A DNA stretch of 44,177 bases from an uncultured Dehalococcoidales bacterium (GCA_964448395.1 CAYUWM010000006.1:1-44177), one strand, 5' to 3'. Shown: positions 11,234 to 34,323, counted from the stretch's first letter. Numbers and translations are program-made. Notes: generated by a model from the sequence alone, not told the origin.

Positions 11234-11917
11234 ATGGTTGATTCTATGAAGGATTTCAAAATAGAGCTCGATGAGAAGAGCGTATACCGCATCCTCGGCT
11301 ATTCCAATGGACACAAGCCAAAATCTTCTATCCGCTCGCTGGTGGACACGGAGATGGCACAGGCCTACGATCTCATCCACCCGTCATGTTCCTACCAGAT
11401 AATGGATATCAAGCGAATACGCCGACCCAGAGTCAACCTGGTTAACGGAACAAATATAACCCTCACCAGCGAGGTTCTGAGCTGGGGGCTACATCACTGC
11501 GAGCAGGCGGTCATATTCGTAGCCAGCATCGGACAGGCACTGGAGGCAAGGGTAACGCAACTGATGGCTGATGGTCAGAGCGGGAAGGCAGTCATACTCG
11601 ATGCCATAGGCTCCGAAGCCACAGAGAAAACGGTATGCTATCTCCAAGACCAGATCCGAGAGGTCGCCAAATTTGATGACGGAGAATCCACGCTGCGTTA
11701 CAGCCCCGGCTATTGCGATTGGGACATCACCCAGCAGAAGGTACTGTTTAAAGCAATGGACTCTATCCCCACGCAGGTGAGCCTCAGCGACGAGTGTGTC
11801 ATGACGCCCCGTAAGTCCGTCTCCGGCATCATCGGACTGGGGTGGAGCGAGAAGCCCCGCCTCAGGCTTTCACCGTGCCGATTCTGCACCCGACAGGATT
11901 GTAAAAACAGGAGGTAG
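11234..11917 (+). CDS. MetH reactivation-domain-like protein of corrinoid methyltransferase operons, with a C-terminal Cys cluster
   Basis: 'ILDAIGSEA.E', 'RYSPGYCDW', 'CVMTPRKSVSGIIG', C-terminal 'PCRFCTRQDCKNRR'. Confidence 0.8.
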   Translation: MVDSMKDFKIELDEKSVYRILGYSNGHKPKSSIRSLVDTEMAQAYDLIHPSCSYQIMDIKRIRRPRVNLVNGTNITLTSEVLSWGLHHCEQAVIFVASIGQALEARVTQLMADGQSGKAVILDAIGSEATEKTVCYLQDQIREVAKFDDGESTLRYSPGYCDWDITQQKVLFKAMDSIPTQVSLSDECVMTPRKSVSGIIGLGWSEKPRLRLSPCRFCTRQDCKNRR

Positions 11918-21100: not shown

Positions 21101-22115
21101 CGGACGCTCTTTCTCCTTGGCCATACTCGACCTTGACGGTTTCAAGAGATACAATGACCGATTTGGCCACATCAGCGGCGATGCAGTGCTGAAGCACTTT
21201 GCCAACGCAATCAAGCTGGCTATACGCAAGAGTGATATCGCTTTCCGCTATGGCGGCGACGAGTTTGCTGTGATACTGCCATCAACCAGCGCCGATAGGG
21301 CTAAAAAGATTATCGAACGAATTAGAGATAAGTGGCCTAAAATTGCACAGGAACAGTATCCCGTTTTAGAAAACCCTATAAGGTTCAGCGCCGGAATAGC
21401 CCAGTTTCCCGACGATTCGGAAACGTCAGATGGCCTGGTTTTCCTGGCAGATACCTCCCTGTTTACCGCCAAAAGAGGCAAAGGCTACAAAACCACAATG
21501 GCATCCGAGCTCGGTGAACTCCCTATAGATGCCCGGGGCCCGGCAACGCTCGATCAGGTTTACGCCCTGGCATCCACCGTTGATGCCAGATCCCCCTACA
21601 CGTCCGGCCATTCTAACAGGGTCGCCACCGTAGCATCGGTGATAGGCAGGGCTATCGGGCTGTCTCCGGAGGAAATGGAACAGCTAACGACAGCCTCTTT
21701 GCTACATGACATCGGGAAGCTAGGCGTTCCCGACTTAATACTCAGGAAGCCTGAAACACTCACCAGAGACGAGCGTCGCGTAATAGAGAAACACGCTGCA
21801 GAAGGGGCTAAAATCCTCAGTCACGTGAGCGAGCTGACAGCACTGGCCCCCATAGTGCGGCATCACCATGAATGGTATAACGGAGAGGGCTATCCGGAAA
21901 GGCTGAAGGGTGAGGACATACCGCTGCTTTCCCGGATCATCACCGTGGCCGACTCGTACGACACCATGGTCACCCCACTGCCGCACCGGCAGGCTATGAC
22001 CCACGAAGATGCGCTGGACGAATTGAGGCGGTACGCGGGTGTACAGTTCGATCCCGATCTGGTAGAGTCATTCGCCGAAAGCGCCAGCGACGGCATTCCT
22101 CAGGCAGAAACCTGA
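18183..22115 (+). CDS. Multi-PAS + GAF + GGDEF diguanylate cyclase + HD-GYP phosphodiesterase
   Basis: Repeated PAS/PAC units ending in 'DI(T/S)ERKxxExALRxSE', a GAF domain, RKSD I-site with GGDEF, 'LLHDIGK' and 'GEGYP'. Confidence 0.93.
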   Translation: MANKGQKTKQSSPQSGEDRFRELLESLPQMVCETDLEGNLTFANKVAFDTFGYSQRDFELGINIFDMVSPEDRDVAMDNLLRIIAGEKLGADECMAQRKDGTKFPIIVQGSRIVNAKGKASGFRSFVIDISERKKTEEALRDSEEKLRTVFESMADAIVITDMELKVIDVNEAALRMGGYSSKEELIGINGLDFISPKNRINAIESFGKALESSRPEERLEYALLHKSGRELNVELSIAMLHDSSGNPAGFIAIARDVFERKRTESALRESEAMFRELFENMSSGVAVYEPIDSGKHFVFKDLNSAGEMISNVKKDELIGKTIHEAFPNLKQSGLIDSVRRVWETGEPEHVPPIYNKDERRSGWRENNIYKLPSGDVVAVYDDVTERMEAEEALRESEEKFRLVFESIEDLLLVMDLEGIIVEVNEATLHIFGYRSKDELIGRNSAELVATKDRGRVIKNALKIIEQGSARGISEYHVVTLIAADGHEFEVEFSIALERDASGQVVGIIGIAHDITERKRMEEALRESEEKLSVMFSSIEDGIVVVDLAGNIVDVNRATLRLHGYSSRDELISRNSLDLIAEDSRAGAIETMMKALGEKRGATLEYTLLKKDGGKADGEGSVNLFSDSSGNPLGIVVVTREITARKRIERALRESEERYRSVIENANDAIVVAQDGFLRFFNPKAMEIMGYSRDELSSTPFLDVIHPDDRQMVADRHLRRLAGEELPSVYAFRIIDKRGNIKWLEINSVVIQWEEKPATLNFLSDITERKSAERVLQKRNRELTAINAIAQSLTQYTRLNKVLQTALYSTLEVTGLLTGGIWLLDEGKGKLVLAIHRGFGRRFERAMVRMPMEIGVAGKVMAISDIHANKELHPKYKETARLDGLQSAISIPLKSKGKTLGVINLFSHNRRDFPAEDIQLLETIGGEIGVAIENAKLLEKLSEQSETDELTGLYNRRHFYDTLDNETYSTWRSGRSFSLAILDLDGFKRYNDRFGHISGDAVLKHFANAIKLAIRKSDIAFRYGGDEFAVILPSTSADRAKKIIERIRDKWPKIAQEQYPVLENPIRFSAGIAQFPDDSETSDGLVFLADTSLFTAKRGKGYKTTMASELGELPIDARGPATLDQVYALASTVDARSPYTSGHSNRVATVASVIGRAIGLSPEEMEQLTTASLLHDIGKLGVPDLILRKPETLTRDERRVIEKHAAEGAKILSHVSELTALAPIVRHHHEWYNGEGYPERLKGEDIPLLSRIITVADSYDTMVTPLPHRQAMTHEDALDELRRYAGVQFDPDLVESFAESASDGIPQAET

Positions 22116-23575: not shown

Positions 23576-24664
23576 ATGACAATCGATGCCAGCTGTAAAA
23601 CCACCGCCATGGGGATCATGCCCCACACCGATATCGATCGGGCGCTGGAACTGGCCTTGGGGCTGGATATCCCGTTCTTCCCCCAGCTCCCCAAGGTAGA
23701 CTTCCACGAGGACATGTACGCACAGGCATCGCAGAACTTCCCCGGCATCGAGGTTGACGTATCACACGAAAGGGTGGACTTCAATACCGAAAGATTTCAC
23801 CAGGAGATGAGCGACTACACGGACAGGATGGCCGATGCGAAAACCTTTAACCTGACCAGCGAATACTCAGTGGTCTACCACCGTTTCTTGGAGAAGGACT
23901 TAGGCAGCTACGAGGCGATACGGGGACAGCTCACCGGGCCGGTCAGCTTCGGGTTCAAGGTGGTGGACGAGAACAAGAAGCCCATCATTTACGACGACGA
24001 GATAAGGACTATACTGTTCGATTTCCTGCAGCGCAAAACCAACGTCCAGTACCAGCAGCTCAAACAGAAGAACCGCAACGCTTTCGTCTGGCTCGACGAG
24101 CCTGGCCTGGGGTGGGTCTTCAGCGGCCTGTCCGGCTACCTTGACCAACAGGCAAAGGAGGAGTACCGCGGCTTCCTCGACGGGCTCGAGGGGCCCAGGG
24201 CGCTGCACCTATGCGCCAACGTAAACCTGCCCTACCTGCTATCGCTGGGCCTGGACATCCTGTCATTCGATGCGTACCAGATCGAGACAATGCCCAGGGG
24301 GTATGCCTCATCGGTGGCCGATTTCACCGAGGCCGGCGGCATCGTGTGCTGGGGCATTGTGCCCACCGATTCGACAAACCTCAGCGCGGAGACGCCCGAC
24401 TCACTGGCACAGCGGCTTATCGATTATTGGGACGTGGTGGCCCAAAACTCCACTACTACGACAGAGCGCATTGCCCGGCAGGCCCTGATAGCACCAGCGC
24501 GGTGCTGTCTCAAGAACATCGGGCAGGTCGGCGCCACCGGTGAAAACGGCTCCCCGTCGGGAGCCTCATGCGGGCTCTCCAGTATCGAGGAGGAACTGGT
24601 AGAGAAGGCATTTGGGGTCATCAAAGAGGTATCGTCTATCTTACGTGATAAATACGGTATTTGA
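23576..24664 (+). CDS. Short 'core' methionine synthase (MetE catalytic-domain-only family)
   Basis: 'MGIMPH...PFFPQLP', 'GQLTGPVSF', 'WLDEP', Zn ligands in 'HLC', 'WGIVPT', late Cys in 'PARCCL'. Lacks the folate-binding N-terminal half. Confidence 0.75.
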   Translation: MTIDASCKTTAMGIMPHTDIDRALELALGLDIPFFPQLPKVDFHEDMYAQASQNFPGIEVDVSHERVDFNTERFHQEMSDYTDRMADAKTFNLTSEYSVVYHRFLEKDLGSYEAIRGQLTGPVSFGFKVVDENKKPIIYDDEIRTILFDFLQRKTNVQYQQLKQKNRNAFVWLDEPGLGWVFSGLSGYLDQQAKEEYRGFLDGLEGPRALHLCANVNLPYLLSLGLDILSFDAYQIETMPRGYASSVADFTEAGGIVCWGIVPTDSTNLSAETPDSLAQRLIDYWDVVAQNSTTTTERIARQALIAPARCCLKNIGQVGATGENGSPSGASCGLSSIEEELVEKAFGVIKEVSSILRDKYGI

Positions 24665-24690: not shown

Positions 24691-24719
24691 TTGACAACCG
24701 GCCTGCCCTGCGCTAGTAT
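24691..24719 (+). promoter_or_regulatory. Sigma70-type promoter upstream of the stress island
   Basis: TTGACA (24691-24696), 17-nt spacer, TAGTAT (24714-24719). Confidence 0.6.
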
Positions 24720-24779: not shown

Positions 24780-24822
24780 TGAGACTAAAGTCGCATACAT
24801 CACGATTGAACACCGTTAGAAT
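24780..24822 (+). promoter_or_regulatory. Crp/Fnr box 1 with a class II promoter
   Basis: TGAGA-CTAAAG-TCGCA (24780-24795) and -10 TAGAAT (24817-24822). Box centre at about -41.5. Confidence 0.75.
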
Positions 24823-24848
24823 CAACAAAGTACCGGAGGGACATATAA

Positions 24849-25415
24849 TTGAAAGTCCTGGGGATTATGGGCAGCCCGCGGATAAAGGGGAACACCGACC
24901 TGCTCCTCGACGAAGCCCTCAAAGGGGCACAGGAGCAGGGTGCAGAGGTCGAAAAGATACTCGTTGATAAGCTCGATATCGCTCCCTGCCGCGAGTACTA
25001 CGGCTGCGAGAAAGACGGCAACTGCGTTATAAGGGACGATATGGATGATATATATCCCAAGCTCCTCGATGCCGGTGCCGTAATCGTAGCCTCTCCGATG
25101 TTCTTCTACGGGCTTTCCAGCCAGGTCAAGGCGCTGATAGACCGTTCCCAGGCGCTGTGGGCGAGACGATATACCCTCAAACAGGAGCCGCCCGACGGGG
25201 GAAGGAAGGGAGCGTTCATCGCCGTCGGCGCCACCAAGGGCAGGGAACTGTTCACTGGATCGATACTGACAGTTAAATATTTCTTCGAGGCGATCGGAGT
25301 CGAGTATGCCGGCGAGCTGCTCGTCCGGGGTGTCGACAAGAGGGGAGAGATAAAGCAGCATCCATCCGCCCTCTCCGACGCATTCGAATCAGGCAAACGA
25401 TTGGTGCAAAAATAA
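24849..25415 (+). CDS. Flavodoxin / iron-sulfur flavoprotein-like NADPH-dependent FMN reductase
   Basis: 'GSPRIKGNT', 'ASPMFFYG', 'KALIDR'. TTG start after GGAGG. Confidence 0.88.
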   Translation: MKVLGIMGSPRIKGNTDLLLDEALKGAQEQGAEVEKILVDKLDIAPCREYYGCEKDGNCVIRDDMDDIYPKLLDAGAVIVASPMFFYGLSSQVKALIDRSQALWARRYTLKQEPPDGGRKGAFIAVGATKGRELFTGSILTVKYFFEAIGVEYAGELLVRGVDKRGEIKQHPSALSDAFESGKRLVQK

Positions 25416-25439
25416 TGTTCATCATCGGAGGATAGCGAC

Positions 25440-25628
25440 ATGGCGTGTAAAAAACCAGTTACATCGATCGAGGATGAGATAAAGGCGTCCCTGGTTGACG
25501 GCAAGCTGCCCTGCGCGGTGGCGTTCGGCATCGCCAAGAAGCTCAAGGTCAGCCCCCGGCAGGTGGGCGATACGGCCAACGATTTGCAGATAAAGATAGC
25601 TACCTGCCAGTTGGGCTGCTTCCCGTAG
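25440..25628 (+). CDS. Small hypothetical protein with 'LPC' and C-terminal 'CQLGCF' motifs
   Basis: 62 aa, GGAGG RBS, lies within the operon. Motif pattern is one I recognise from small proteins of anaerobes. Confidence 0.8.
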   Translation: MACKKPVTSIEDEIKASLVDGKLPCAVAFGIAKKLKVSPRQVGDTANDLQIKIATCQLGCFP

Positions 25629-25667
25629 GATTGCGGAACGATAGGCGCAGGTATAGAATTTAGAGGT

Positions 25668-26096
25668 ATGCAGATGGCAAACGGTAACGGCGATCGAGAG
25701 ATAACCTTTGATGCCGGAACGATAAAGCACGACCAATTGGAGGCGGTGCTGAACACCCTGCCGGTCGATATCACCTTCGTGGACAAGGACGATACGGTGA
25801 GATACTTTAACCAGCCAGGCAAGCGCATCTTCGCCCGGGGGAAAGCGGTCATCGGCCGCAAGGTGCAGCAATGCCATCCCCAGAAGAGCTTGGATAAGGT
25901 AAGCAGCATCGTAGGTGAGTTCAAGAGCGGCAAGCGCGATGTCGCCGATTTCTGGATCCAGATGAAGGGCAGGGTGGTCTCCATACGCTTCTTCCCCGTC
26001 CGCGATAAAGAGGGTAATTACCTCGGCTGCCTGGAGGTGGTACAGGACATCACCGAGCTGCAGAAGCTGAAGGGTGAGAAGAGGCTGCTGGATTAA
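25668..26096 (+). CDS. Stand-alone PAS domain protein (DUF438-associated PAS type)
   Basis: 'LNTLPVDITFVDKDDTVRYFN', 'IGRKVQQCHP', 'YLGCLEVVQDIT'. Confidence 0.85.
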   Translation: MQMANGNGDREITFDAGTIKHDQLEAVLNTLPVDITFVDKDDTVRYFNQPGKRIFARGKAVIGRKVQQCHPQKSLDKVSSIVGEFKSGKRDVADFWIQMKGRVVSIRFFPVRDKEGNYLGCLEVVQDITELQKLKGEKRLLD

Positions 26097-26127
26097 GCCT
26101 GAGTCAGCAATAAAAGAAAGGAGCCGA

Positions 26128-26349
26128 ATGACAAAGATTGAAGACTGGGCAATGGCCAGGGAATCGCTGAGGGAGGAGCTGGATGCCATCAACAAGTATG
26201 AAGGTAGGATAGAGAAGACCGGCGACAACTCTTTGAAAAAGGTGCTCCAGCACAACTCGGACGAGGAGAAGGAACACGTGGCTATGCTGGTCGAGTGGCT
26301 GCGGGAGAACGACCCGACGCAGGACAAGATGTTCGAGGAGCACGACTAA
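26128..26349 (+). CDS. Short ferritin-like protein of the encapsulated-ferritin (EncFtn) type
   Basis: 'SLREELDAINKY', 'HNSDEEKEHVAMLVEWLR..DP'. ATG at 26128 follows AAGGAG. Confidence 0.85.
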   Translation: MTKIEDWAMARESLREELDAINKYEGRIEKTGDNSLKKVLQHNSDEEKEHVAMLVEWLRENDPTQDKMFEEHD

Positions 26350-26384
26350 GTAGTCAATCGCACGAACCAACGAAGGAGGATAAA

Positions 26385-27011
26385 ATGCCTTACACCGCCA
26401 AAGACTACGGCAAACTTTTGGGTATGAAGGGTTTCAGCGATACGCTGCTCAGCAATCACTTCACCCTCTATCAGGGTTATGTAAACAACACAAACAAACT
26501 GTGGGATACGCTCAGCGCCATGCTGAAGGATGGCAAAACGGCCACCCCGGAGTATGCCGAACTTAAACGCCGATTCGGATTCGAGTTTAATGGTATGCGC
26601 CTCCACGAGTATTATTTCGAGAACCTGGGCGGCAAAGGGGCGCCCGGCAAATCAGGCAAGCTGGCCAAGCTGCTACCCGGAGGCTTCGGCAGTTACGAGG
26701 AATGGAAAAAGGACTTCAGGGCGGTGGCCGCCATGCGGGGCATCGGCTGGACCATCCTGTATCAGGACAACACCAACGGCTGGCTGTTCAACCAGTGGAT
26801 CAACGAGCATGAGACCGGCCATGCGGCAGGCTGCACCCCCATCCTGGTGCTGGATGTGTTCGAGCACGCCTTTATGCTGGACTACGGCCTGAAACGGGCC
26901 GACTACATCGACGCATTCTTCAAGAACATCAACTGGGATGCGGTGGAGGCCAGATTAGGGCAATACAACTGTGCAGAACCCGAGGATGTTGATCCTGCGG
27001 CTGAATTCTAA
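26385..27011 (+). CDS. Fe/Mn superoxide dismutase family protein
   Basis: Ligands in 'SNHFTLYQGY', 'MRLHEYYF' and 'LDVFEHAF'. ATG at 26385 follows AAGGAGGA. Confidence 0.9.
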   Translation: MPYTAKDYGKLLGMKGFSDTLLSNHFTLYQGYVNNTNKLWDTLSAMLKDGKTATPEYAELKRRFGFEFNGMRLHEYYFENLGGKGAPGKSGKLAKLLPGGFGSYEEWKKDFRAVAAMRGIGWTILYQDNTNGWLFNQWINEHETGHAAGCTPILVLDVFEHAFMLDYGLKRADYIDAFFKNINWDAVEARLGQYNCAEPEDVDPAAEF

Positions 27012-27055
27012 AATGTTAATAACACTGGACGACAACATTCAAAGATAGGGGGACT

Positions 27056-27562
27056 ATGGACACCAAAGCTTTACACCTCATAAGTTACGGCCTGTATATA
27101 GTAGGCTCGAAAAAGGGTGATAAGATCAACGGCCAGACGGCCAACACCGTGATACAGGTTTCCTCTGAGCCGCCTTTAATCTCGGTATGCATCAACAAGC
27201 AGAACCTGACGCACGAGTTCATCGAGGACAGCGGCGTCTTCACTGCTTCCATCATAGCTCAGGATTCCCCGTTGAGCTTAGTCGGGGGCTTCGGCTTCAA
27301 ATCCGGACGTGACGTGGATAAATTCAAAAGTATCAACCACAAGCTGGGGGAGACCGGCGCGCCCGTAGTGCTGGATGACATCATAGCTTATCTGGAAGCT
27401 AAGGTGATCAACAAGGTCGATGTCGGCACGCATACCATCTTCATCGGAGACCTGGTGGGCGCCGAGGTTCTAAAGGAAGGTGAGCCGATGACTTACGCTT
27501 ATTACCACTTGGTGAAGCGCGGTACTACCCCCAAGACGGCCCCATCCTTCCATGAGGACTAA
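27056..27562 (+). CDS. Flavin reductase-like protein (N-terminal domain type of high-molecular-weight rubredoxin)
   Basis: 'ISYGLYIV', 'INKQNLTH', 'VGTHTIFIG', 'MTYAYYH..KRG.TPK.AP'. Confidence 0.88.
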   Translation: MDTKALHLISYGLYIVGSKKGDKINGQTANTVIQVSSEPPLISVCINKQNLTHEFIEDSGVFTASIIAQDSPLSLVGGFGFKSGRDVDKFKSINHKLGETGAPVVLDDIIAYLEAKVINKVDVGTHTIFIGDLVGAEVLKEGEPMTYAYYHLVKRGTTPKTAPSFHED

Positions 27563-27580
27563 ACGAGAGAGGAGACTGGC

Positions 27581-27742
27581 GTGAAGTATAAATGTAGTGT
27601 ATGTGGATACGTCTACGACCCGGAGCAGGGCGATCCCGACGGTGACATATCACCCGGCACCGCCTTCGAGAACCTGCCCGATGACTGGCAATGCCCGGTC
27701 TGCGGCGCGAGCAAGGACGAGTTCGAGAAGATAGACGAGTAG
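27581..27742 (+). CDS. Rubredoxin (not in the ORF track)
   Basis: GTG start after GAGGAG. Translates [53 protein letters not shown]. Confidence 0.96.
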
Positions 27743-27771
27743 AATCGCTCTTTCCCAGGAGGTGAACTGAG

Positions 27772-27960
27772 ATGACAGAACAGATATGCCCAACGTGCGG
27801 CTGCCTTATATCCGGCGAAGGCTACGAGACCGGAGGCGTTGTTTTCTGCTGCGAACCCTGCGCCAAGGACGAGTCCTGTGGCTGCGGTTGCTGCGCTGAT
27901 GCACCGGAATCGAGTCCTATTGAAGATGAGGTGAAGCACTGGTACATACGCAGGTCCTGA
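27772..27960 (+). CDS. Bacterial metallothionein-like Cys-rich peptide
   Basis: 10 Cys in 62 aa: CPTCGC...FCCEPCA...CGCGCC. AGGAGGTG RBS. Confidence 0.75.
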   Translation: MTEQICPTCGCLISGEGYETGGVVFCCEPCAKDESCGCGCCADAPESSPIEDEVKHWYIRRS

Positions 27961-28133
27961 CGGTAGCTTCACCTGCCCCGGCGGGGCACACGAATCCAAA
28001 GTTACCGATTAAAAGGAGTGGGTAGGGAACAAGGGACAAGCCCTGCTCATGCTATGCAAGGAGCTGGCGGCATGGGTGTTCACCCCGCCAGCGACGTCTA
28101 AAGAGGACTAGTTGATTATTCGAGGGTACAGAC

Positions 28134-29324
28134 TTGAAGAAAATAGAACTGGCTGAAGGTGTCTACTGGGTAGGCGCCATCGACTGGAATATCAGGAACT
28201 TCCACGGCTACTCCACGCACGTGGGCACGACCTATAACGCCTACCTAATCGTCGACCAGAAGGTGGCCCTCATCGACACAGTCAAGGCCCCCTTCTATGG
28301 CGAACTGGCAGCTAGAGTAAACGAGATCGTTTCCTTCGCCGACATCGACTACGTGGTATCGAACCACGTCGAGATGGACCACTCCGGCTCGTTGCCGATG
28401 GTGATGGACGCGGCTAAAAAGGCCAAGCTGATCACGCTGGAGAAGTTCGGCGAGAACGGACTGAGCAAAACGTTTCATGCCCAATGGCCGACCATAGCGG
28501 TAAAGGAGGGCAGCGAGCTTAAGCTGGGCAAGCGCAATCTGACCTTCATACCCACCCCCATGCTCCACTGGCCCGACTCCATGTGCACCTACCTGATCGA
28601 GGACAAGATCCTGTTCTCCATGGACGCCTTCGGGCAGCACCTGGCTAGCTCACAGCGGTTCGATGATGAAGTGGGGCTGGGGATAATCATGCCGCAGGCA
28701 ACGAAATACTACGCCAATATCCTGATGCCCTTCGGCGACCTGATAGTGAAGGCCGCGGAGAAGCTAGGCGGCATCGACATAGACATGATCGCCCCCAGCC
28801 ACGGCATTATATGGCGCTCTCACCTGAGCGATATCCTAAGCGCTTATACTTCATGGGGCAAGGGTGAAACCGTCAACAAGGCGCTGGTGATATATGATAC
28901 AATGTGGGGCAGCACCGAGAAGATGGCGCTCGCGCTGGCGGAGGGCATCGCCGGGGAAGGCATCAAGGTTAAGGTTTATAACCTGAGCAAGTCAGACCAC
29001 AGCGACATCATCAAAGAGGTGCTCGATGCCAGGGCAATCCTGGTCGGCTCACCGACGCTCAATAACGGGATGTTCCCTACCGTATCGCAATTCCTGTGCT
29101 ACCTGAAGGGACTGAAGCCCAAGGGCAAGATCGGTGCCGCCTTCGGTTCGCACGGATGGGCCGGCGGTGCCGTCAAGGCGGTGCAGCAGGAGCTGGAGGC
29201 CGCCGGAATCGACCTGATGGAATCAGGTCTCGCATTTAAGTTTGTGCCCGATGCGGAAGAATTACAGAAGTGCGCAGATTTCGGCAAAACGGTGGCGCAA
29301 TGTATGAAACAAGGAGGTGTCTAA
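28134..29324 (+). CDS. fprA: Flavodiiron protein (O2/NO reductase, FprA)
   Basis: 'GTTYNAYLI', 'NHVEMDHSG', 'HWPDSM', 'APSHG', flavodoxin motif 'YDTMWGSTEKMA'. Confidence 0.95.
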   Translation: MKKIELAEGVYWVGAIDWNIRNFHGYSTHVGTTYNAYLIVDQKVALIDTVKAPFYGELAARVNEIVSFADIDYVVSNHVEMDHSGSLPMVMDAAKKAKLITLEKFGENGLSKTFHAQWPTIAVKEGSELKLGKRNLTFIPTPMLHWPDSMCTYLIEDKILFSMDAFGQHLASSQRFDDEVGLGIIMPQATKYYANILMPFGDLIVKAAEKLGGIDIDMIAPSHGIIWRSHLSDILSAYTSWGKGETVNKALVIYDTMWGSTEKMALALAEGIAGEGIKVKVYNLSKSDHSDIIKEVLDARAILVGSPTLNNGMFPTVSQFLCYLKGLKPKGKIGAAFGSHGWAGGAVKAVQQELEAAGIDLMESGLAFKFVPDAEELQKCADFGKTVAQCMKQGGV

Positions 29325-29845
29325 TGGTAAGTGAGATCGATGCCCTGAGACTGGCCATCGAGAAGGAAAGGGGGGCACACCAGTACTACAGCGAGGCAGC
29401 CGGGCGCGTCACCAACGAGGCCAGTAAAAAGATGTTCACCTGGCTGGCTAACGAAGAGAAGGGCCACCTCCATCTGCTAGAGAGCCAGTGCGCAGCCGTC
29501 GAGCAAAGCAGCGAGTGGCTTGCCGAGGATAAAACCCCTGCCGGCTGTAAACTATCAACACCCATCGCCCGCTCGGAGTTCCCTTCTCTATCCGAGGCCA
29601 AGGACGATCCCAGAACCGAAGTGCCGGAGATGGATATACTGAGCAAGGCCATCGCCGACGAGCGGGAGGCCGCTCAATCGTACGCTGAGATGGCGGAGGC
29701 CGTCTCCGACCCCAAGGGCAAGGAGATGTTGCGCAAGCTCTCCCAGATCGAGAACGGGCACCTGGCGCTGCTCGAAGAGGAGTATGAGTTCATACGCCGC
29801 TCCAAGCCCATGTTCCCCCTGCACCGCTTCACGCTGTCCGCCTAA
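29324..29845 (+). CDS. Rubrerythrin-like di-iron ferritin-fold protein
   Basis: Two 'AIxxE...Y...EExxH' type halves. ATG overlaps the fprA stop codon, with an AGGAGG RBS. Confidence 0.85.
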   Translation: MVSEIDALRLAIEKERGAHQYYSEAAGRVTNEASKKMFTWLANEEKGHLHLLESQCAAVEQSSEWLAEDKTPAGCKLSTPIARSEFPSLSEAKDDPRTEVPEMDILSKAIADEREAAQSYAEMAEAVSDPKGKEMLRKLSQIENGHLALLEEEYEFIRRSKPMFPLHRFTLSA

Positions 29846-30027
29846 GGTTAATCTTGAATAATGGCGTCCCAACGTGGTCATCTCAGGACAGCTTGCTGTT
29901 TCGGCACGTGTCGATCCATCAGCCGATACCGCGAAGTGGTAAAGCCCCTCCATGCACACGGAACAAAATAATGTAGACCCGGAGAGATTCCAGCCAACAC
30001 ACCTAGAAATTATAGAGGTTATCAAAG

Positions 30028-31773
30028 ATGAAGATTCGACAATCACCGCCGCACTATGAGGACGCCAACCTGCAGGACTACGAGTCAGCATATGCAGACT
30101 TCCAGTGGTCGGATGTGGAGCAGGAATTCGACTGGTACCGGACCGGCAAGCTGAACATGGCCCACGAGGCTATCGACCGCCACTGCCAGACGAAGCGCAG
30201 GGATAAGATAGCACTATACTACCTGTCCGACGAGCGCGACGAGCAATACACCTTCGAGCAACTGCGCATCCTGTCCAACAAGTTCGCCAATGTCCTCCGC
30301 GGACTAGGCATCGGCAAGGGAGATCGAGTGTTCATCTTCATGCCGCGCGCCCCCGAGGTCCACATCGGTTTCATCGGCATCGCCAAGGTGGGAGCCATAG
30401 TGGGGCCCCTGTTCGAGGCGTTCATGGAAGAGGCCCTCAAGGATAGACTTCAGGACAGCGAGGCGGTGGCGATAATCACCACCCCGGAATTGAAACCCCG
30501 CATCCCCAGGCAGGAACTGCCGTCCCTCAAACATGTCATCCTGGTCGGTGATACCGGAGAACTCGGCCCGGGCGAGGTGAGCTACGAACAGCTCATGTCG
30601 CAGGCACCTGAAGAGGCTGATATCGAGTGGGTGGACCGCGAAGACCCGCTGATCCTGCACTATACCTCTGGCTCCACCGGTAAGCCCAAGGGCGTGCTCC
30701 ATGTTCACAACGCAATGATCGGCCACTATCAAACGTCGAAATGGGTGCTCGACCTCAAGGATGACGATGTCTACTGGTGCACCGCCGACCCCGGCTGGAT
30801 CACCGGCACCTCCTACGGCATCTACGGACCCTGGCTGCTGGGGACAAGCATCGTCCTCCGCGGCGGCAGATTCGACCCGGAGAAGTCCTTTGCCACTATA
30901 GACCGGTATAAGGTGACGGTATGGTTCAGCGCCCCTACCGCCTTCCGGCGGATGATGGCAACCAGCGACGAATTGCGACACAGATACAGCCTGGGAAGCC
31001 TGCGCCACATCCTTAGCGCCGGCGAGCCGCTCAACCCGGCAGTCATTACCTGGGCGCAGCACACGCTCGGCATGCCGATCTACGACAACTGGTGGATGAC
31101 CGAATCGGGCATGCAGCTGATCGCCAACTACCGCTGCCTGCCAATCAAGCCCGGCTCCATGGGCAAGCCCGTGCCCGGCGTTATCGCTACAATACTGGAT
31201 GACGACGGTAATGAGTTACCCCCCAACCATATAGGCAACCTCGCCATCAAAGCGGGGTGGCCCGCCATGATGCGGCAGATATGGAGAAACGACAGCAAGT
31301 ACCGGGAATATTTCCCCTTCAACTCATGGTTCATCTCCGGTGACTCCGCCCATCGGGACGACGATGGCTACTTCTGGTTCCAGGGGCGTATCGATGATAT
31401 CATCAAGACATCCGGGGAGAGGGTCGGCCCTTTCGAGGTGGAGAGCGTTTTGCTGGAGCATCCAGCGATAGTGGAGGCCGGGGTCATCGGCAAACCCGAC
31501 CCGCTCAGGGGACAGATCATCAAGGCATTCGTTTGCCTCCGCGACGGCTACGAAGAGAGCGAAGAATTAAAAAAAGAGATCATGGATTTCGTGCGCAAGC
31601 ATCTGGCGGCACATGCCGTACCCCGCGAGATCGAGTTTGAATGTGCATTGCCCAAGACCAGGAGCGGCAAGATAATGCGCCGGGTGCTGAAGGCCTGGGA
31701 TCTGGGACTTCCTGCCGGGGACCTCTCAACAATGGACGACGCAAGCCATTTCCATGACCAGAATGGTCACTAG
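30028..31773 (+). CDS. acsA: Acetate--CoA ligase (AMP-forming acetyl-CoA synthetase)
   Basis: 'YTSGSTGKPKG', 'WCTADPGW', 'AGEPLNP', 'DNWWMTE', 'PKTRSGKIMRR'. Confidence 0.92.
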   Translation: MKIRQSPPHYEDANLQDYESAYADFQWSDVEQEFDWYRTGKLNMAHEAIDRHCQTKRRDKIALYYLSDERDEQYTFEQLRILSNKFANVLRGLGIGKGDRVFIFMPRAPEVHIGFIGIAKVGAIVGPLFEAFMEEALKDRLQDSEAVAIITTPELKPRIPRQELPSLKHVILVGDTGELGPGEVSYEQLMSQAPEEADIEWVDREDPLILHYTSGSTGKPKGVLHVHNAMIGHYQTSKWVLDLKDDDVYWCTADPGWITGTSYGIYGPWLLGTSIVLRGGRFDPEKSFATIDRYKVTVWFSAPTAFRRMMATSDELRHRYSLGSLRHILSAGEPLNPAVITWAQHTLGMPIYDNWWMTESGMQLIANYRCLPIKPGSMGKPVPGVIATILDDDGNELPPNHIGNLAIKAGWPAMMRQIWRNDSKYREYFPFNSWFISGDSAHRDDDGYFWFQGRIDDIIKTSGERVGPFEVESVLLEHPAIVEAGVIGKPDPLRGQIIKAFVCLRDGYEESEELKKEIMDFVRKHLAAHAVPREIEFECALPKTRSGKIMRRVLKAWDLGLPAGDLSTMDDASHFHDQNGH

Positions 31774-31843
31774 TTTTAACCTGCGACTGCGGATGTTATA
31801 ATGGTTCACCAGGGGCCCCATCGCTGCGAAATACGGAATATAG

Positions 31844-32515
31844 ATGACGGTTCAGATAGAGACGCTGCAGTCCATCCCCTACTTCCACGGAATCAGCTTA
31901 GAAGACCTTAACACGATCAAGGATTCATTCTTCGAGAAGACAGCGGAAAGGGGAGAGCTGATACTGGCAGAGGAAGAGCCCTCCAATGTGCTGTACTTCA
32001 TTACCTCCGGCGCAGTGAAACTATTCAAGACATCGGCTGACGGGAAAGAGCAGATACTCGATATCGCCCGACCGGGCCAGTCGATAAACGATGTCCCCGT
32101 TTTCGACGGCAACCCGAACCTTACCAGCGCTCAGGCGATGGGGCCGGTAATACTGTACGGGGTCGACAAGGCAGCTTTAGATAGAATCCTGCAGCTATAC
32201 CCCAGGGTGGCCCAAAACGCCAACAAAGTTCTAGCCGGACAGGTGCGCCGCCTTACCTCGCTGGTCGAGGACCTTTCCTTCAAGCCGGTTATCGGCAGGG
32301 TGGCCAAGATACTATTAGAGAACAGTGAAGAGAACCCCGACTCCCACCCTAAGCTCACCCAGCAGGATATGGCGGCCATGGCCGGCACCGCCCGCGAGGT
32401 GGTCGGCAGGTCGCTCAAGGCCCTTGAAGAAGAAGGATTGATCAGGCTGGAGCGACACCGCCTGGTGATCAGCGACAAGGAAGCGCTTAAAGATATGGTG
32501 GCGGCATTTTCTTAA
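31844..32515 (+). CDS. Crp/Fnr family transcriptional regulator containing no Cys
   Basis: cNMP-type domain plus HTH 'LTQQDMAAMAGTAREVVGRSL'. Extended -10 TGtTATAAT near 31794-31802. Confidence 0.93.
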   Translation: MTVQIETLQSIPYFHGISLEDLNTIKDSFFEKTAERGELILAEEEPSNVLYFITSGAVKLFKTSADGKEQILDIARPGQSINDVPVFDGNPNLTSAQAMGPVILYGVDKAALDRILQLYPRVAQNANKVLAGQVRRLTSLVEDLSFKPVIGRVAKILLENSEENPDSHPKLTQQDMAAMAGTAREVVGRSLKALEEEGLIRLERHRLVISDKEALKDMVAAFS

Positions 32516-32521
32516 GCTTGT

Positions 32522-32565
32522 TGAGACAAACGTCACACACATCGATTGAAAGCCAATTATATGAT
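32522..32565 (+). promoter_or_regulatory. Crp/Fnr box 2 with a class II promoter
   Basis: TGAGA-CAAACG-TCACA (32522-32537) and -10 TATGAT (32560-32565). Confidence 0.75.
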
Positions 32566-32588
32566 TAAAATAGAGGGAGGCGAGAGGA

Positions 32589-32801
32589 GTGGCTGAGATG
32601 CCGGTAATAGATTACGGCAAGTGTGATGGTTGCGGGCTGTGTGTCAGCGTCTGCAGATGTAAAATCCTAGTCATTATTGATGGGATACTAACCATCGTTC
32701 ACGAAGAGAAATGCGGCATCTGCAGCCGCTGGTGCACCGAATGCGAAGACGTGTGCCCCACCGGAGCCATAAGCTGCCCCTTCGATATAGTTGTAGAGTG
32801 A
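32589..32801 (+). CDS. Dicluster 4Fe-4S ferredoxin
   Basis: CDGCGLCVSVC and CGICSRWCTECEDVCP. GTG start after GGGAGG. Confidence 0.9.
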   Translation: MAEMPVIDYGKCDGCGLCVSVCRCKILVIIDGILTIVHEEKCGICSRWCTECEDVCPTGAISCPFDIVVE

Positions 32802-32828
32802 TGCTTCCTGCCTTCACCCGATCTCTAT

Positions 32829-32871
32829 TGAGACAAAAGTCGCATACAATGACCCACTATCACCCTAGAAT
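32829..32871 (+). promoter_or_regulatory. Crp/Fnr box 3 with a class II promoter
   Basis: TGAGA-CAAAAG-TCGCA (32829-32844) and -10 TAGAAT (32866-32871). Confidence 0.78.
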
Positions 32872-32900
32872 GAACCTAGCGGCAATCTAAAGACAAGATT

Positions 32901-33617
32901 ATGAAAATCACCATCAGTATAGAGAAACCAAGAATCAACAGACGCATCTTCCACTGGATAATCGCAGCGGCTTTTATAGCCCTGTTCGCCACTGGCCTAA
33001 TCATTTATACACCCCAGTTCTCCACACTGGCCTCCGGGGGTGCAACCAGGATTATTCATAAAATAGCGGCGGTGACACTTATAGCCGGACCAATCATCTA
33101 CGCTCTGTTCAAACCTGATATAGCACGGCAATGGATCAGGGAAGCGGCTATCTGGAGGAAGCTGCCTGCCGATTCGCCGCAGTTCATCAGCCCCTGGAGG
33201 AGGAAGCATAAGTTGCTGATATCCATCGGTATCATCCTCTTTGCACTGACGGGTTCCCTCCAGTGGTTTTTCAAAGACATCCTGCCGGATGGGGTCTTCG
33301 ACGTTTCCCTTTTTATCCATAGCATTTTATTCTTCTCCGCCATCGTCGTCCTACTGTACCATATCTACTTCGAATTATACTGGTGGCTGTGGAGGAGAAG
33401 GTACTGCCGCCGCTGCGCTTTCCCCTATTGCGCCGACGCATGCCCCGTTGGAGCCGTAGCCGTTGACAACGGTACCATAGTGCGCGACAGCATAAAATGC
33501 AATAACTGCCGGCTGTGCATGCAGGACTGCCAGCGGAAGGCTCACTACAATAAGATTATCGTGCTGGAGAAGAACTTGCGAGCAGTCAAAACGGATCCAG
33601 CAGAGCACCGTATCTAA
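32901..33617 (+). CDS. Di-heme cytochrome b (FdnI/HyaC-like) fused to a C-terminal 4Fe-4S dicluster domain
   Basis: Four hydrophobic helices with His (FHW, IHK, IHS, YHI), then CRRCAFPYCADACP and CNNCRLCMQDC. Confidence 0.8.
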   Translation: MKITISIEKPRINRRIFHWIIAAAFIALFATGLIIYTPQFSTLASGGATRIIHKIAAVTLIAGPIIYALFKPDIARQWIREAAIWRKLPADSPQFISPWRRKHKLLISIGIILFALTGSLQWFFKDILPDGVFDVSLFIHSILFFSAIVVLLYHIYFELYWWLWRRRYCRRCAFPYCADACPVGAVAVDNGTIVRDSIKCNNCRLCMQDCQRKAHYNKIIVLEKNLRAVKTDPAEHRI

Positions 33618-33710
33618 CCAGGTTAAACTTACACGCCTGGACTCGCCCAACTCACGACACCTAACCCCCAAACGTCTGTTTATCTTATTCAATCCATAGC
33701 TATCTACGCA

Positions 33711-33753
33711 TGGGATAAAAGTCACATACAATTTCGCTTCCTTAGCATACAAT
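33711..33753 (+). promoter_or_regulatory. Crp/Fnr box 4 with a class II promoter
   Basis: TGGGA-TAAAAG-TCACA (33711-33726) and -10 TACAAT (33748-33753). Confidence 0.72.
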
Positions 33754-33780: not shown

Positions 33781-34035
33781 ATGGGAAGTAAAATGCAAAA
33801 CCATGTAACGAGAAATGGCTCGGCGGCAGTCCTCGACAAACCCAGAAATACGCAGGAGTCATGCCACCACTACTGGGTAATAGAAATGCCGAAAGGGCCG
33901 ACAAGCAGGGGCCGATGCAAGTTCTGCGGAACGGAGAGGGAGTTCGATAACCTGGGACCGGATTCGTGGAGGTACGGCGATATTTCGGAACTCCTGACCA
34001 CTAACCTTCGGGATATCATGAGCGAAGGAGCATAG
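33781..34035 (+). CDS. Small putative Zn-finger protein (CxHxW...CxxC)
   Basis: 'CHHYWVIE...SRGRCKFCG..REFDN'. GGGAG RBS. Promoter with Crp box directly upstream. Confidence 0.7.
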   Translation: MGSKMQNHVTRNGSAAVLDKPRNTQESCHHYWVIEMPKGPTSRGRCKFCGTEREFDNLGPDSWRYGDISELLTTNLRDIMSEGA

Positions 34036-34106
34036 TTAAGCACGCCAGCAATTGAACGCAGTGAGCAACTGGAGATCGATTTTAAAAAAACAATAATAAT
34101 TAATAG

Positions 34107-34233
34107 ACGTCAAAAGTATTTGGAATAGACCTGGGGACCACCAACTCGTGTATGGCCGTAATGGAAGCCGGCGAGCCGACGGTGGTAGTGACACAGCGGC
34201 GAAACGGTAGAGGGCGAGTTCCGCGAGGTATAA
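34107..34233 (+). pseudogene. dnaK: dnaK deletion scar: N-terminal and C-terminal codons joined out of frame
   Basis: ACG (dead start), then [26 protein letters not shown] (Hsp70 signature IDLGTTNS). In a shifted frame, [13 protein letters not shown], a DnaK-like tail. Confidence 0.85.
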
Positions 34234-34323
34234 CGTGGTACAATTAGCTGTCGGCAAGGGCAGTGCATGTGCCCTGACCCTACCAATGTATAGCAGTCAA
34301 GTAAAACCAAGGAGATTTACAGG

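Follow-up and report, generated by a model that had tools for sequence, protein, structure and literature searches.

Class II promoters of Escherichia coli CRP, such as galP1, carry a TGTGA-N6-TCACA site centred at -41.5, and Crp/Fnr proteins centred at this position are classically activators. Within this family, FNR, DNR, HcpR and CooA sense O2, NO and CO; they govern redox-related regulons by activation from about -41.5, and some HcpR regulons include a ferredoxin-like gene. In other anaerobes, rubrerythrin, flavodiiron, superoxide dismutase (SOD) and Msr genes are controlled by systems of the PerR, OxyR and Rex types. In Thermus thermophilus, the CRP/FNR protein SdrP (TTHA1359), a class II activator, binds beside the -35 box or across it, responds above all to oxidative stress and recognizes the consensus TTGTG-N9-CNC or AWTGTRA-N6-TYACAWT, with a half-site preference that is partly one-sided (PMC8465061).

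The window, meaning the whole 44,177-nucleotide stretch of DNA analysed here, from an uncultured Dehalococcoidales bacterium, contains exactly four occurrences of TGRGA-N6-TCRCA, against 0.32 expected by chance, and none of 100 dinucleotide shuffles of the window contained at least four. On the plus strand these boxes read TGAGACTAAAGTCGCA (24780), TGAGACAAACGTCACA (32522), TGAGACAAAAGTCGCA (32829) and TGGGATAAAAGTCACA (33711). All are intergenic, lying 69, 67, 72 and 70 nt before start codons at 24849, 32589, 32901 and 33781, respectively. Scanning the window with a 20-nt position weight matrix (PWM) gave a bimodal result, with the four boxes at 25-35 bits and no other site above 1.8 bits. 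The sequence-only reading had placed four Crp/Fnr boxes at these positions and -10 hexamers 29.5, 30.5, 29.5 and 29.5 nt from their centres, and both observations were confirmed. The sites and the adjacent regulator gene are as follows.

Box 1, 24780-24799, plus strand: TGAGACTAAAGTCGCATACA, 29.9 bits (PWM)
-10 hexamer TAGAAT of box 1, 24817-24822, plus strand: 29.5 nt from the box centre
Crp/Fnr-family regulator, 31844-32515, plus strand: 223 aa, PF00027 and PF13545
Box 2, the predicted ferredoxin promoter, 32522-32541, plus strand: TGAGACAAACGTCACACACA, 25.1 bits (PWM)
-10 hexamer TATGAT of box 2, 32560-32565, plus strand: 30.5 nt from the box centre
Box 3, 32829-32848, plus strand: TGAGACAAAAGTCGCATACA, 34.8 bits (PWM)
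-10 hexamer TAGAAT of box 3, 32866-32871, plus strand: 29.5 nt from the box centre
Box 4, 33711-33730, plus strand: TGGGATAAAAGTCACATACA, 30.1 bits (PWM)
-10 hexamer TACAAT of box 4, 33748-33753, plus strand: 29.5 nt from the box centre

About 200 loci of uncultured Dehalococcoidia share the box, its spacing and its gene set, and no paper describing the box was found in the literature. In 80 Dehalococcoidia loci selected solely for a homologue of the regulator, a box lies at the regulator stop codon in nearly all, as box 2 does here (it starts 7 nt past the stop), and a second box follows a few hundred bases downstream. With a cut-off of 16 bits, 164 sites were found in these loci compared with 0.33 in shuffles, and the dyad was carried by 74 of the 81 sequences in the regulator-homology set. 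In a set of 339 sites, 130 start at the regulator stop codon or immediately past it, and 113 lie a further 40-700 nt on. The proposed assignment of the boxes to the adjacent Crp/Fnr regulator agrees with this linkage; the predicted regulon is lineage-wide in Dehalococcoidia loci and not, as first described, local. Because four near-identical boxes lie at a fixed distance ahead of promoters beside the regulator gene and recur in about 200 loci, the regulon looks real.

The conserved unit is the 20-mer TGAGACAAAaGTCRCAKACA. The shared flanks that had been noted are real, except for a leading T that is present in three window boxes and is not kept family-wide. The box is asymmetric, with a left half TGAGA and a right half read as TGYGA (TG[T/C]GA); its A-rich spacer is conserved, its KACA flank is fixed, and its 5+6+5 dyad departs from symmetry at the central base. 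The Crp/Fnr box type previously assigned holds as far as the 5+6+5 dyad goes and fails as a plain CRP palindrome, since all 20 bases of the asymmetric site, spacer included, are conserved and the site carries a -35 remnant. Neither the asymmetry nor the spacer conservation would follow from binding by a symmetric homodimer alone.

Within the window, box 3 is an exact match to the non-ferredoxin consensus and is nonetheless the least conserved of the four: its arrangement with the cytochrome b gene is common only to the window and L018, and L001, the closest genome, has the ferredoxin gene directly adjoining the cytochrome b gene, without a box. Box 3 sits within an extra 100-nt spacer missing from the closest genome, as a mobile repeat might. 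The idea that the boxes are dispersed repeat copies or chance similarities without a regulatory role is nevertheless effectively refuted, because conservation is limited to the 20 nt and the -10 hexamer and excludes the flanks, orientation and distance to the start codon are fixed, sites persist among regulators just 57-77% identical, and only 0.3 sites are expected by chance. Box 1 orthologues precede FMN-reductase orthologues in L001 (2377) and L018 (4630), and box 4 orthologues lie upstream of orf84 homologues at 56 sites.

Family-wide, the -10 signal spans offsets 37-42 from the box start and is of the ordinary TAnAAT type. In 317 of the 339 sites (94%), TAnnnT begins at offset 37 or 38, which places it 29.5 or 30.5 nt beyond the box centre; between box and -10 the information content is about zero, and start codons follow the box start at a median of 70 nt. 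Ferredoxin promoters have a conserved box subtype of their own, and the one-base-longer spacing (30.5 nt) is typical of them (85 of 130); each promoter class holds its own spacing. If transcription starts about 7 nt past the -10 hexamer, the box centre would lie at -41.5 or -42.5, and the description of the boxes as promoter-associated Crp-type dyads at class II geometry (about -41.5) is upheld on this reading of the sequence. The sequence CAKACA (CAGACA or CATACA) is a -35 remnant 17 bp from the -10 hexamer; it overlaps the dyad by two bases, which are fixed as CA rather than TT.

Lying over the -35 element, such a site could suit a repressor equally well, and the regulator might occupy -49 to -34, block polymerase and be released on oxidation by a PerR-like logic. 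The box does overlap the -35 remnant, and CAGACA or CATACA with a 17-bp spacer and TAnAAT could suffice as a promoter, so that remnant and good -10 might work unaided; boxless promoters in the window have good elements, so a strong -35 is not generally avoided. Rubrerythrin, flavodiiron protein and SOD, which are typical PerR-type derepressed genes in anaerobes, are also among the predicted targets here. For a repressor, however, mere overlap would do, yet 94% of the 339 sites keep two adjacent spacings, each kept separately by its promoter class. CA instead of TT within the box weakens the -35 element as in activator-dependent promoters, and the -41.5 centre is the classical activator position. 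We therefore regard repression as rather unlikely. Such rigid phasing of box to -10 is what contact between a bound protein and polymerase requires, which supports the activator reading.

The regulator combines an N-terminal cNMP-binding-type beta-roll (PF00027, E 8e-19, residues 32-117) with a C-terminal Crp-type helix-turn-helix (PF13545, E 2e-16; PF00325, E 1.6e-5; residues 151-217), and it aligns full-length to solved CRP-type proteins, the best of which are about 30% identical to it. An AlphaFold model had a pLDDT of 54, too low for structural reading. The CRP-like recognition helix reported earlier was confirmed (GTAREVVGR): its R-E-x-x-x-R residues (R184, E185 and R189), which we take to correspond to R180, E181 and R185 of CRP, are invariant in 25 homologues. 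The regulator has no Cys, and neither do 24 of the 25 homologues; lacking the four Cys ligands it is therefore not an FNR-type Fe-S sensor, as had been concluded before. Likewise, the motif is TGAGA-N6-TCRCA, not the FNR box TTGAT-N4-ATCAA. Nor does the regulator qualify as CRP proper, the cAMP receptor: the Arg of the Arg/Ser pair (R82/S83 in E. coli) is missing, and no NCBIfam equivalog cut-off was reached (CRP equivalog, 71.7 bits against a cut-off of 266). The 'GPRTSSA' of the Mycobacterium tuberculosis CRP aligns with 'GNPNLTSA' of the regulator, which has N/L at the position of the cAMP phosphate-binding Arg ('NPNLTSA'); the family consensus is 'GPNPASA'.

The sequence-only reading had also suggested a DNR/HcpR-like haem protein. 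A gas or haem sensor of the DNR, HcpR or CooA kind, responding to NO, CO or O2, would make this mainly a nitrosative-stress and NO-detoxification regulon centred on the flavodiiron protein, whose best model is indeed the NO-reductase flavorubredoxin (436 bits, below the cut-off of 635). DNR is among the PDB matches (3dkw, E 5e-14), and such regulators share the position at about -41.5. CRP-type proteins match far better than DNR, however, the box differs from the TTGAT-N4-ATCAA of DNR and FNR, and no hcp, nor or nir gene was found among the 339 genes downstream of boxes. In the closest relatives the only His, H205, belongs to the DNA-binding domain, and comparison of the homologues revealed no conserved His in the sensor domain. 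Because there is no Cys and the sole His lies elsewhere, the sensor domain lacks the usual haem ligands. Residue 2 is T, A or D, not the N-terminal Pro that, like His or Cys, can be an axial haem ligand in such sensors. His-ligated haem sensing thus appears unlikely and ligation by Met may occur; the earlier suggestion is weakened, and we consider a gas or haem sensor very unlikely.

Behind the boxes of the window lie a co-directional row of stress genes (24849-31773, plus strand; Pfam and NCBIfam) and three further genes, all on the plus strand.

FMN reductase, 24849-25415, plus strand, stress row
62-aa open reading frame, 25440-25628, plus strand, stress row
PAS_10 protein, 25668-26096, plus strand, stress row
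EncFtn-like protein, 26074-26349, plus strand, stress row
Fe/Mn SOD, about 26385-27011, plus strand, stress row
Flavin reductase, 27056-27562, plus strand, stress row
Cys-rich 62-aa open reading frame, 27772-27960, plus strand, stress row
Flavodiiron protein, 28134-29324, plus strand, stress row
Rubrerythrin-like protein, 29270-29845, plus strand, stress row
AMP-binding enzyme, 30028-31773, plus strand, stress row
Ferredoxin, 32589-32801, plus strand: 70 aa, 2x[4Fe-4S] type with extra Cys
Membrane cytochrome b561-type domain fused to a 4Fe-4S dicluster domain, 32901-33617, plus strand: 238 aa (Pfam/NCBIfam)
orf84, 33781-34035, plus strand: 84-aa protein with a Cys4 core, second commonest first gene behind boxes

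We infer that the stress row is a single operon. The PWM scan found no further box inside it, and control of the SOD, flavodiiron and rubrerythrin-like genes would depend on read-through across gaps of 170-210 nt, which one RNA contig (27597-27747) weakly supports. The stress genes are transcribed in sediments, as metatranscriptome contigs matched the window at 100% identity at 24864-25303, 25499-25839, 26687-27030, 27201-27542 and 27597-27954; another, at 33022-33251, covers part of the cytochrome b fusion gene. These contigs are sparse, end short of the promoters and resolve no start site. Three features that do not depend on a box were also read.

P1, 24691-24719, plus strand: sigma-70-type promoter of the stress operon, TTGACA-17-TAGTAT, 10 of 12 matches
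Terminator-like hairpin upstream of the regulator promoter, 31755-31769
The regulator's own promoter, 31794-31802, plus strand: extended -10 TGTTATAAT, read from sequence

P1 corresponds to the separate consensus promoter previously located at 24691; both its hexamers are invariant in L001 and L018 despite diverged flanks. The window scan found no PWM site at the regulator's own promoter.

Across the 339 boxes, the first gene downstream encodes the ferredoxin in 130 cases, orf84 in 56, a sigma-70 protein in 31, a zinc ribbon in 26, NifU in 18, rubrerythrin in 6, a glycyl-radical enzyme in 5, FMN reductase, glutaredoxin and MsrB in 3 each and Oxidored_molyb in 2; one-off cases include SOD, Hsp20 and SufC-like genes. 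The orf84 proteins share the core C-HYW[IV]IE...GP.S.G.C.xCG and have no relatives in Pfam, NCBIfam or PDB. Since alternative sigma genes are often autoregulated, the 31 sigma-70 genes could point to another factor, such as a box-bearing sigma-70-family protein, reading the 20-mer as an extended promoter element, and its asymmetry, conserved spacer and fixed orientation do look promoter-like. Yet 20 conserved bases with a 5+6+5 dyad far exceed a sigma region-4 contact, the -10 is ordinary, the window and many loci have boxes without such a sigma gene nearby, and nearly every regulator-selected locus pairs the box with the regulator gene, all of which makes another factor highly improbable.

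Taken together, these data partly support the earlier interpretation. We consider it fairly probable that a Cys-less Crp/Fnr regulator without the cAMP-binding Arg responds to oxidative or redox stress by activating the boxed promoters from the class II position. The four boxes would be operators of the protein encoded at 31844-32515, whose dimer would bind the 16-bp dyad TGAGA-N6-TCRCA through R184, E185 and R189, with the dyad centre about 41.5 bp upstream of the start site (about 42.5 bp at the ferredoxin promoter). The bound regulator most likely recruits RNA polymerase by class II activation, with the weak -35 remnant and the good -10. Activation would switch on oxidant-defence and Fe-S/protein-repair genes: the FMN-reductase/SOD/flavodiiron/rubrerythrin row, the ferredoxin, the cytochrome b-ferredoxin fusion and the 84-aa Cys4 protein in the window, to which relatives would add sigma-70, NifU, rubrerythrin, MsrB, an MsrP-like enzyme, glutaredoxin, Hsp20 and SufC. 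P1 would provide additional, box-independent basal expression of the stress operon, and an ordinary extended -10 promoter would drive the regulator gene.

Gene content points to oxidative or redox stress as the probable input signal; the glycyl-radical enzyme among the targets would fit anaerobiosis equally well. Judging by the residues present, the signal is sensed neither by an Fe-S cluster nor by the classical cAMP route. An atypical 2x[4Fe-4S] ferredoxin gene lies directly downstream of the regulator in nearly every genome, and it is conceivable, if quite improbable, that the regulator itself lacks a sensor and that this ferredoxin acts in trans as a sensor of redox or Fe-S status or as a co-regulator. 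In a variant of this idea, the invariant residues M99 and M179 would form a Met-oxidation switch that the regulon's own MsrB and MsrP-like enzymes would reset. If the ferredoxin were the sensor, the FNR principle would be divided between two proteins, with a feedback loop closed on the Fe-S repair genes (NifU, SufC).

Among solved structures, the best matches of the regulator are M. tuberculosis CRP (Rv3676) and Corynebacterium GlxR (full-length, E about 4e-25); unlike the regulator, these are global metabolic regulators and bind cAMP through an RTSSA cassette that it lacks. With E. coli CRP it shares the PF00027 and PF13545 fold family, an R-E-x-x-x-R helix of the kind that reads TGTGA-type half-sites (here TGAGA and TG[T/C]GA), the 5+6+5 geometry and, by inference, the position overlapping the -35 element. 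It differs in lacking the cAMP phosphate-binding Arg, in falling short of the CRP equivalog, in an asymmetric box (TGAGA/TCRCA) with a conserved A-rich spacer and fixed KACA, and in serving stress defence here rather than catabolism. FNR, DNR, HcpR and CooA resemble it in family and redox-related regulon, down to the ferredoxin-like target of some HcpR regulons, but the regulator has no Cys cluster or conserved sensor-domain His, its box is not TTGAT-N4-ATCAA, and no hcp, nir or nor target was found behind the boxes. PerR, OxyR and Rex control the same kinds of target genes, and the regulator therefore probably does the same physiological job, although the protein families and operators are unrelated and theirs is mostly repression, not class II activation. 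SdrP, of a type whose active conformation needs no effector, was not among the 60 PDB matches listed for the regulator and shows no specific sequence relationship to it, and consensus, phylum and gene set differ; by analogy, SdrP would still be its closest functional counterpart. Overall, the locus looks like part of a previously undescribed oxidative-stress and Fe-S-repair regulon of a familiar mechanistic type.

The 44,177-bp window contains the dyad TGRGA-N6-TCRCA at four places, 24780, 32522, 32829, and 33711, in every case on the + strand and between genes. The number expected by chance is 0.32, and none of 100 dinucleotide-preserving shuffles reached four; we give almost no credence to the idea that the boxes represent chance matches or a dispersed repeat. 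A sequence-only reading of this DNA had reported Crp/Fnr-type boxes at these four positions, each followed at a set distance by a -10 hexamer, and its description of the boxes, checked by pattern count and by reading the sequence, was accurate in every checkable particular.

The -10-like hexamers behind the four boxes, with the distance from the dyad center to the start of the hexamer
Box 1: TAGAAT at 24817, + strand, 29.5 nt
Box 2: TATGAT at 32560, + strand, 30.5 nt
Box 3: TAGAAT at 32866, + strand, 29.5 nt
Box 4: TACAAT at 33748, + strand, 29.5 nt

The start codons at 24849, 32589, 32901, and 33781 each lie about 70 nt from the start of their box, and similarity among the four aligned regions is limited to the box, the tetranucleotide YACA, and the -10 hexamer. 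Allowing one mismatch in the dyad gave 7 matches in the window versus 7.5 expected and no new site, and no weak boxes were found in the window ahead of the flavin reductase, flavodiiron, glutaredoxin (Grx)-PDZ, or MarR genes. A reading of the dyad as an RNA hairpin was rejected because the conserved asymmetry places a mismatch in the would-be stem and no T-run follows; an Rfam search of the box region gave no match. The sequence CGATTGAA lies a few bases 3' of boxes 1 and 2 (24800-24809 and 32543-32551) and is absent after the boxes of other loci, except for a one-base variant in the closest genome, L001; its presence behind both boxes is probably a coincidence.

Box 1 heads a row of genes that runs up to the gene for the regulator.

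Genes and other features from box 1 to the regulator
24849-25415, + strand: NADPH-dependent FMN reductase, first gene behind box 1
25440-25628, + strand: 62-aa ORF
25668-26096, + strand: PAS_10 protein
26074-26349, + strand: EncFtn-like ferritin
about 26385-27011, + strand: Fe/Mn superoxide dismutase (SOD)
27056-27562, + strand: flavin reductase
27772-27960, + strand: Cys-rich 62-aa ORF with CxxC, CC, and CGCGCC motifs and no Pfam match
28134-29324, + strand: flavodiiron protein
29270-29845, + strand: rubrerythrin-like protein
30028-31773, + strand: AMP-binding enzyme, end of the row
31755-31769: hairpin ahead of the regulator promoter
31794-31802, + strand: extended -10 (TGTTATAAT) ahead of the regulator gene
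31844-32515, + strand: Crp/Fnr regulator (PF00027 and PF13545)

Box 2 begins 7 nt beyond the regulator stop codon and precedes the gene for a 70-aa 2x[4Fe-4S]-type ferredoxin. Box 3 heads a cytochrome b561-type membrane domain fused to a 4Fe-4S dicluster domain, and box 4 heads orf84, an 84-aa protein with no relative in Pfam, NCBIfam, or PDB searches, after which come the Grx-PDZ protein and the MarR regulator. The row behind box 1 contains no internal box in this window, and we infer that it is co-transcribed; SOD and rubrerythrin carry boxes of their own in other loci, which supports the whole row as part of the predicted regulon.

The separate promoter P1 (TTGACA-17-TAGTAT, 24691-24719) is present as the sequence-only reading had noted. 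It lies about 90 nt upstream of box 1 and is invariant in three genomes (the window, L001, and a further relative, L018) despite diverged flanks, and a transcript from this predicted promoter would run through box 1. A short ATGG-containing stretch just 3' of P1 is likewise kept in all three. A 29-codon reading frame extending from P1 across box 1 was discarded because it is broken in L018.

Upstream of the stress operon, a 362-aa protein without Pfam or NCBIfam match is encoded at 23576-24664 (+); its L001 orthologue is headed by a weak box-like site (L001 1054, TCAGAGGAAAGTCACAGACA, 16.5 bits) that is absent from the window. A 1310-aa signaling protein with five PAS domains plus GAF, GGDEF, and HD-GYP domains is encoded at 18183-22115 (+), 2.7 kb upstream of the operon; c-di-GMP is a ligand of some Crp-family proteins. 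Further upstream, Rfam PYLIS_3, the pyrrolysine insertion element of mttB, matches 12876-12975 (+, 42.5 bits) inside an uninterrupted MttB-family methyltransferase gene (11919-13352), with a second MttB-family gene at 14191-15723 and a B12-domain protein at 11234-11917.

Metagenomes of salt-marsh and marine sediment contain the source organism. Metatranscriptome contigs identical to the window are few and of low depth; they map to the FMN reductase, PAS, SOD, flavin reductase, and Cys-rich ORFs, to the gap at 27597-27747, and to the cytochrome b gene and the end of orf84. These genes are transcribed in situ, and none of the contigs reaches a promoter; for the related locus L039, a search for RNA runs gave none. 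Contigs at 27597-27954 span the 210 nt that follow the flavin reductase gene and take in the Cys-rich 62-aa ORF, which is therefore probably expressed. Contigs from two runs, within 33904-34208, extend over the end of orf84 and through most of the 288 nt (34036-34323) that separate it from the Grx-PDZ gene, which points to a long 3' UTR, to read-through, or to a small RNA; Rfam gave no match there.

The regulator has thousands of homologues, those named coming from Dehalococcoidia or Chloroflexota metagenome-assembled genomes. Aligning 25 homologues (62-87% identity) shows a nearly invariant helix-turn-helix, AAMAGTxREVVGR, and R184, E185, and R189, which match the R180/E181/R185 triad of E. 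coli CRP, are invariant, in agreement with the CRP-like recognition helix described from the sequence. We then considered 80 loci, from one-genome-per-species contigs chosen solely by the regulator protein (1.09 Mb in total). These contain TGAGA-N6-TCACA 70 times and TGAGA-N6-TCGCA 51 times, and the symmetric TGTGA-N6-TCACA has a count of 4, equivalent to about two sites because both strands were counted. The dyad is present in 74 of 81 sequences, nearly always on the regulator's strand; that it is read by some other factor, such as a co-regulated sigma factor, seems highly improbable to us. A 20-nt weight matrix found 164 sites of at least 16 bits versus 0.33 in shuffles, scores that are generous because the matrix was trained on the same loci; the raw pattern counts are independent of it.

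Two box positions are fixed, one at the regulator stop codon and one a few hundred bases further downstream. In most relatives the TGA stop itself supplies the first three bases of the box (L001 10670-10672; about 10670 in most of the other 79 loci, L002-L080), so that the putative operator begins inside the regulator gene; the window differs in having a TAA stop with the box set apart from it (32513-32527). In both L001 and L018, box 1 and P1 are kept ahead of the FMN-reductase orthologue. Conservation is lowest for box 3, which is common only to L018 among the matches listed, and in L001 the ferredoxin and cytochrome b genes lie 3 nt apart and have the ferredoxin promoter in common.

Across 133 sites, information is high at positions 0-19 (TGAGACAAAaGTCRCAKACA), close to zero over the next 17 bases, and climbs again at offsets 37-42 (T-A-a-A-A-T). 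Among at least 339 sites listed, from at least 200 loci, 225 have TAnnnT beginning at offset 37 and 92 have it at offset 38. In the promoter-distal half the middle base is a purine, mostly A, and in the proximal half it is, on the top strand, again a purine; the halves are therefore not reverse complements of each other. Conservation extends to the spacer, CAAARG. Two box subtypes persist across genomes. The ferredoxin promoters have TGAGACAAAgGTCACAgACA, and in 85 of the 130 listed their -10 lies one base more distant; the other promoter classes all have TGAGACAAAAGTCGCATACA and keep the shorter spacing in more than 90% of sites listed. The 30.5-nt spacing at box 2 is thus real, a conserved property of ferredoxin promoters and not noise. 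The asymmetry, the conserved spacer, and the two subtypes set the box apart from a simple CRP site.

The last two bases of the dyad together with KACA form CAGACA or CATACA, 17 bp from the -10, a hexamer that reads as a putative weak -35. If transcription starts about 7 nt after the -10, the dyad center would lie at -41.5 or -42.5; -41.5 is the class II position of CRP and FNR. For the four window boxes, the starts so predicted would be near 24829, 32572, 32878, and 33760. The most likely reading, which we hold with moderate confidence, is that the adjacent Crp/Fnr protein acts as a class II activator when oxidative or redox stress occurs: the regulator would bind the box over the -35 region and, once bound, would activate the boxed promoters under such stress. 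Repression by the regulator from the same site is an unlikely alternative, since the phasing of box to -10 is rigid and class-specific, the box fixes the first two -35 positions as CA, and the family precedent at -41.5 is activation.

A second set of at least 120 loci, metagenome contigs searched with the 20-mer itself, was pooled with the 80 genome loci; being motif-selected, these loci serve only for a census and are unfit for enrichment statistics. The first ORF behind each of the at least 339 pooled sites was clustered, and domains were assigned.

First ORFs behind the box, with the number of sites
Ferredoxin: at least 130
orf84 Cys4 family: at least 56
Full-length sigma-70 factor (regions 1.2, 2, 3, and 4): at least 31
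65-aa zinc ribbon: at least 26
NifU domain protein: at least 18
Rubrerythrin: at least 6
PFL-like glycyl-radical enzyme: at least 5
SHOCT membrane protein: at least 4
FMN reductase: at least 3
Glutaredoxin: at least 3
MsrB-like protein: at least 3
51-aa Cys-rich peptide: at least 3
Cytochrome b-ferredoxin fusion: at least 2
Molybdopterin oxidoreductase (MsrP/YedY type): at least 2

Single cases among the matches listed were SOD, Hsp20 (two), a rubrerythrin-like protein, a SufC-like ATPase, a DUF255 thioredoxin-domain protein, another ferredoxin, and, once, the regulator itself. At least 67 sites lie on contigs without a regulator homologue, so the motif also marks distant regulon members. The predicted content is coherent, comprising oxidant detoxification, Fe-S cluster and protein repair, and electron carriers.

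In many genomes the gene that immediately follows the ferredoxin gene encodes a sigma-70 family protein of about 472 aa and has the second box ahead of it (L131 3132, L047 11037, L059 11038, and at least 28 others), and the regulator may therefore sit above a sigma factor. Three Cys-rich small families recur as box targets: the orf84 family (C-HYWIIE...GP.S.G.C.xCG; window 33781-34035), the 65-aa zinc ribbon (WRLKSCPRCGGDLF...WYEQCLQCSYR; L014 11025, L019 1350, and others), and the 51-aa peptide (CGGDSCCP; L186 1062); none has an informative Pfam or PDB match. The 820-aa PFL-like glycyl-radical enzyme has a perfect box ahead of it on at least five metagenome contigs (L134 7267, L081 10064, L085 2293, L127 1627, and L170 346) and is an oxygen-sensitive target within an otherwise oxidant-defense regulon.

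The regulator is, on its sequence, a clear member of the Crp/Fnr superfamily. Its best solved relatives are Mycobacterium tuberculosis CRP, GlxR, and Thermus CRP (E about 1e-25 to 1e-22 in a PDB sequence search), and it approaches none of the NCBIfam equivalog cutoffs. The phosphate-binding cassette Arg of the solved relatives (GPRTSSA) aligns with N/L in the regulator (GNPNLTSA; family consensus GPNPASA), and this replacement makes classical cAMP binding unlikely. Cys is absent from the regulator and from 24 of 25 relatives, which excludes an FNR-type Fe-S cluster, as had been argued from the sequence. The same reading had raised the possibility of a heme or gas sensor of the DNR/HcpR type, which now appears very unlikely: with no Cys, and with the single His of the closest relatives lying within the DNA-binding domain, His- or Cys-ligated heme is unlikely. 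An AlphaFold2 model built from the 25-sequence alignment was poor (pLDDT 54, pTM 0.39).

In anoxic sediments and aquifers, few bacteria are as abundant as the Dehalococcoidia, almost all of them uncultured; to our knowledge, essentially nothing is known of their gene regulation. We found no published account of this regulon, its motif, or any Dehalococcoidia Crp/Fnr stress regulon in literature of incomplete coverage. The motif can be scanned in any Dehalococcoidia genome to list oxidant-defense and Fe-S repair genes, making it a practical marker of the predicted stress regulon across a large uncultured lineage, and it provides candidate functions, by association, for three small Cys-rich families. 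One 223-aa protein and one 20-mer form a compact experimental target, and the site, with its strict asymmetry and conserved spacer, lends itself to testing how the -35 region is shared between a class II activator and polymerase. Because this subfamily lacks known sensing features, its signal, once found, would add a new input to a well-studied family.

As predicted from sequence, the mechanism would be that of an ordinary Crp/Fnr class II system, serving a putative regulon with an unusual site architecture. The system differs from CRP proper, whose cAMP cassette the regulator lacks, from FNR, whose Cys cluster and FNR box are absent here, and from heme sensors, whose usual ligands are missing. 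One possibility is that the regulator may be controlled by its abundance, as is said of SdrP of Thermus. No specific sequence relationship between SdrP and the regulator was seen. SdrP, a CRP/FNR class II activator of an oxidative-stress response (PMC8465061), is its nearest functional analogue.
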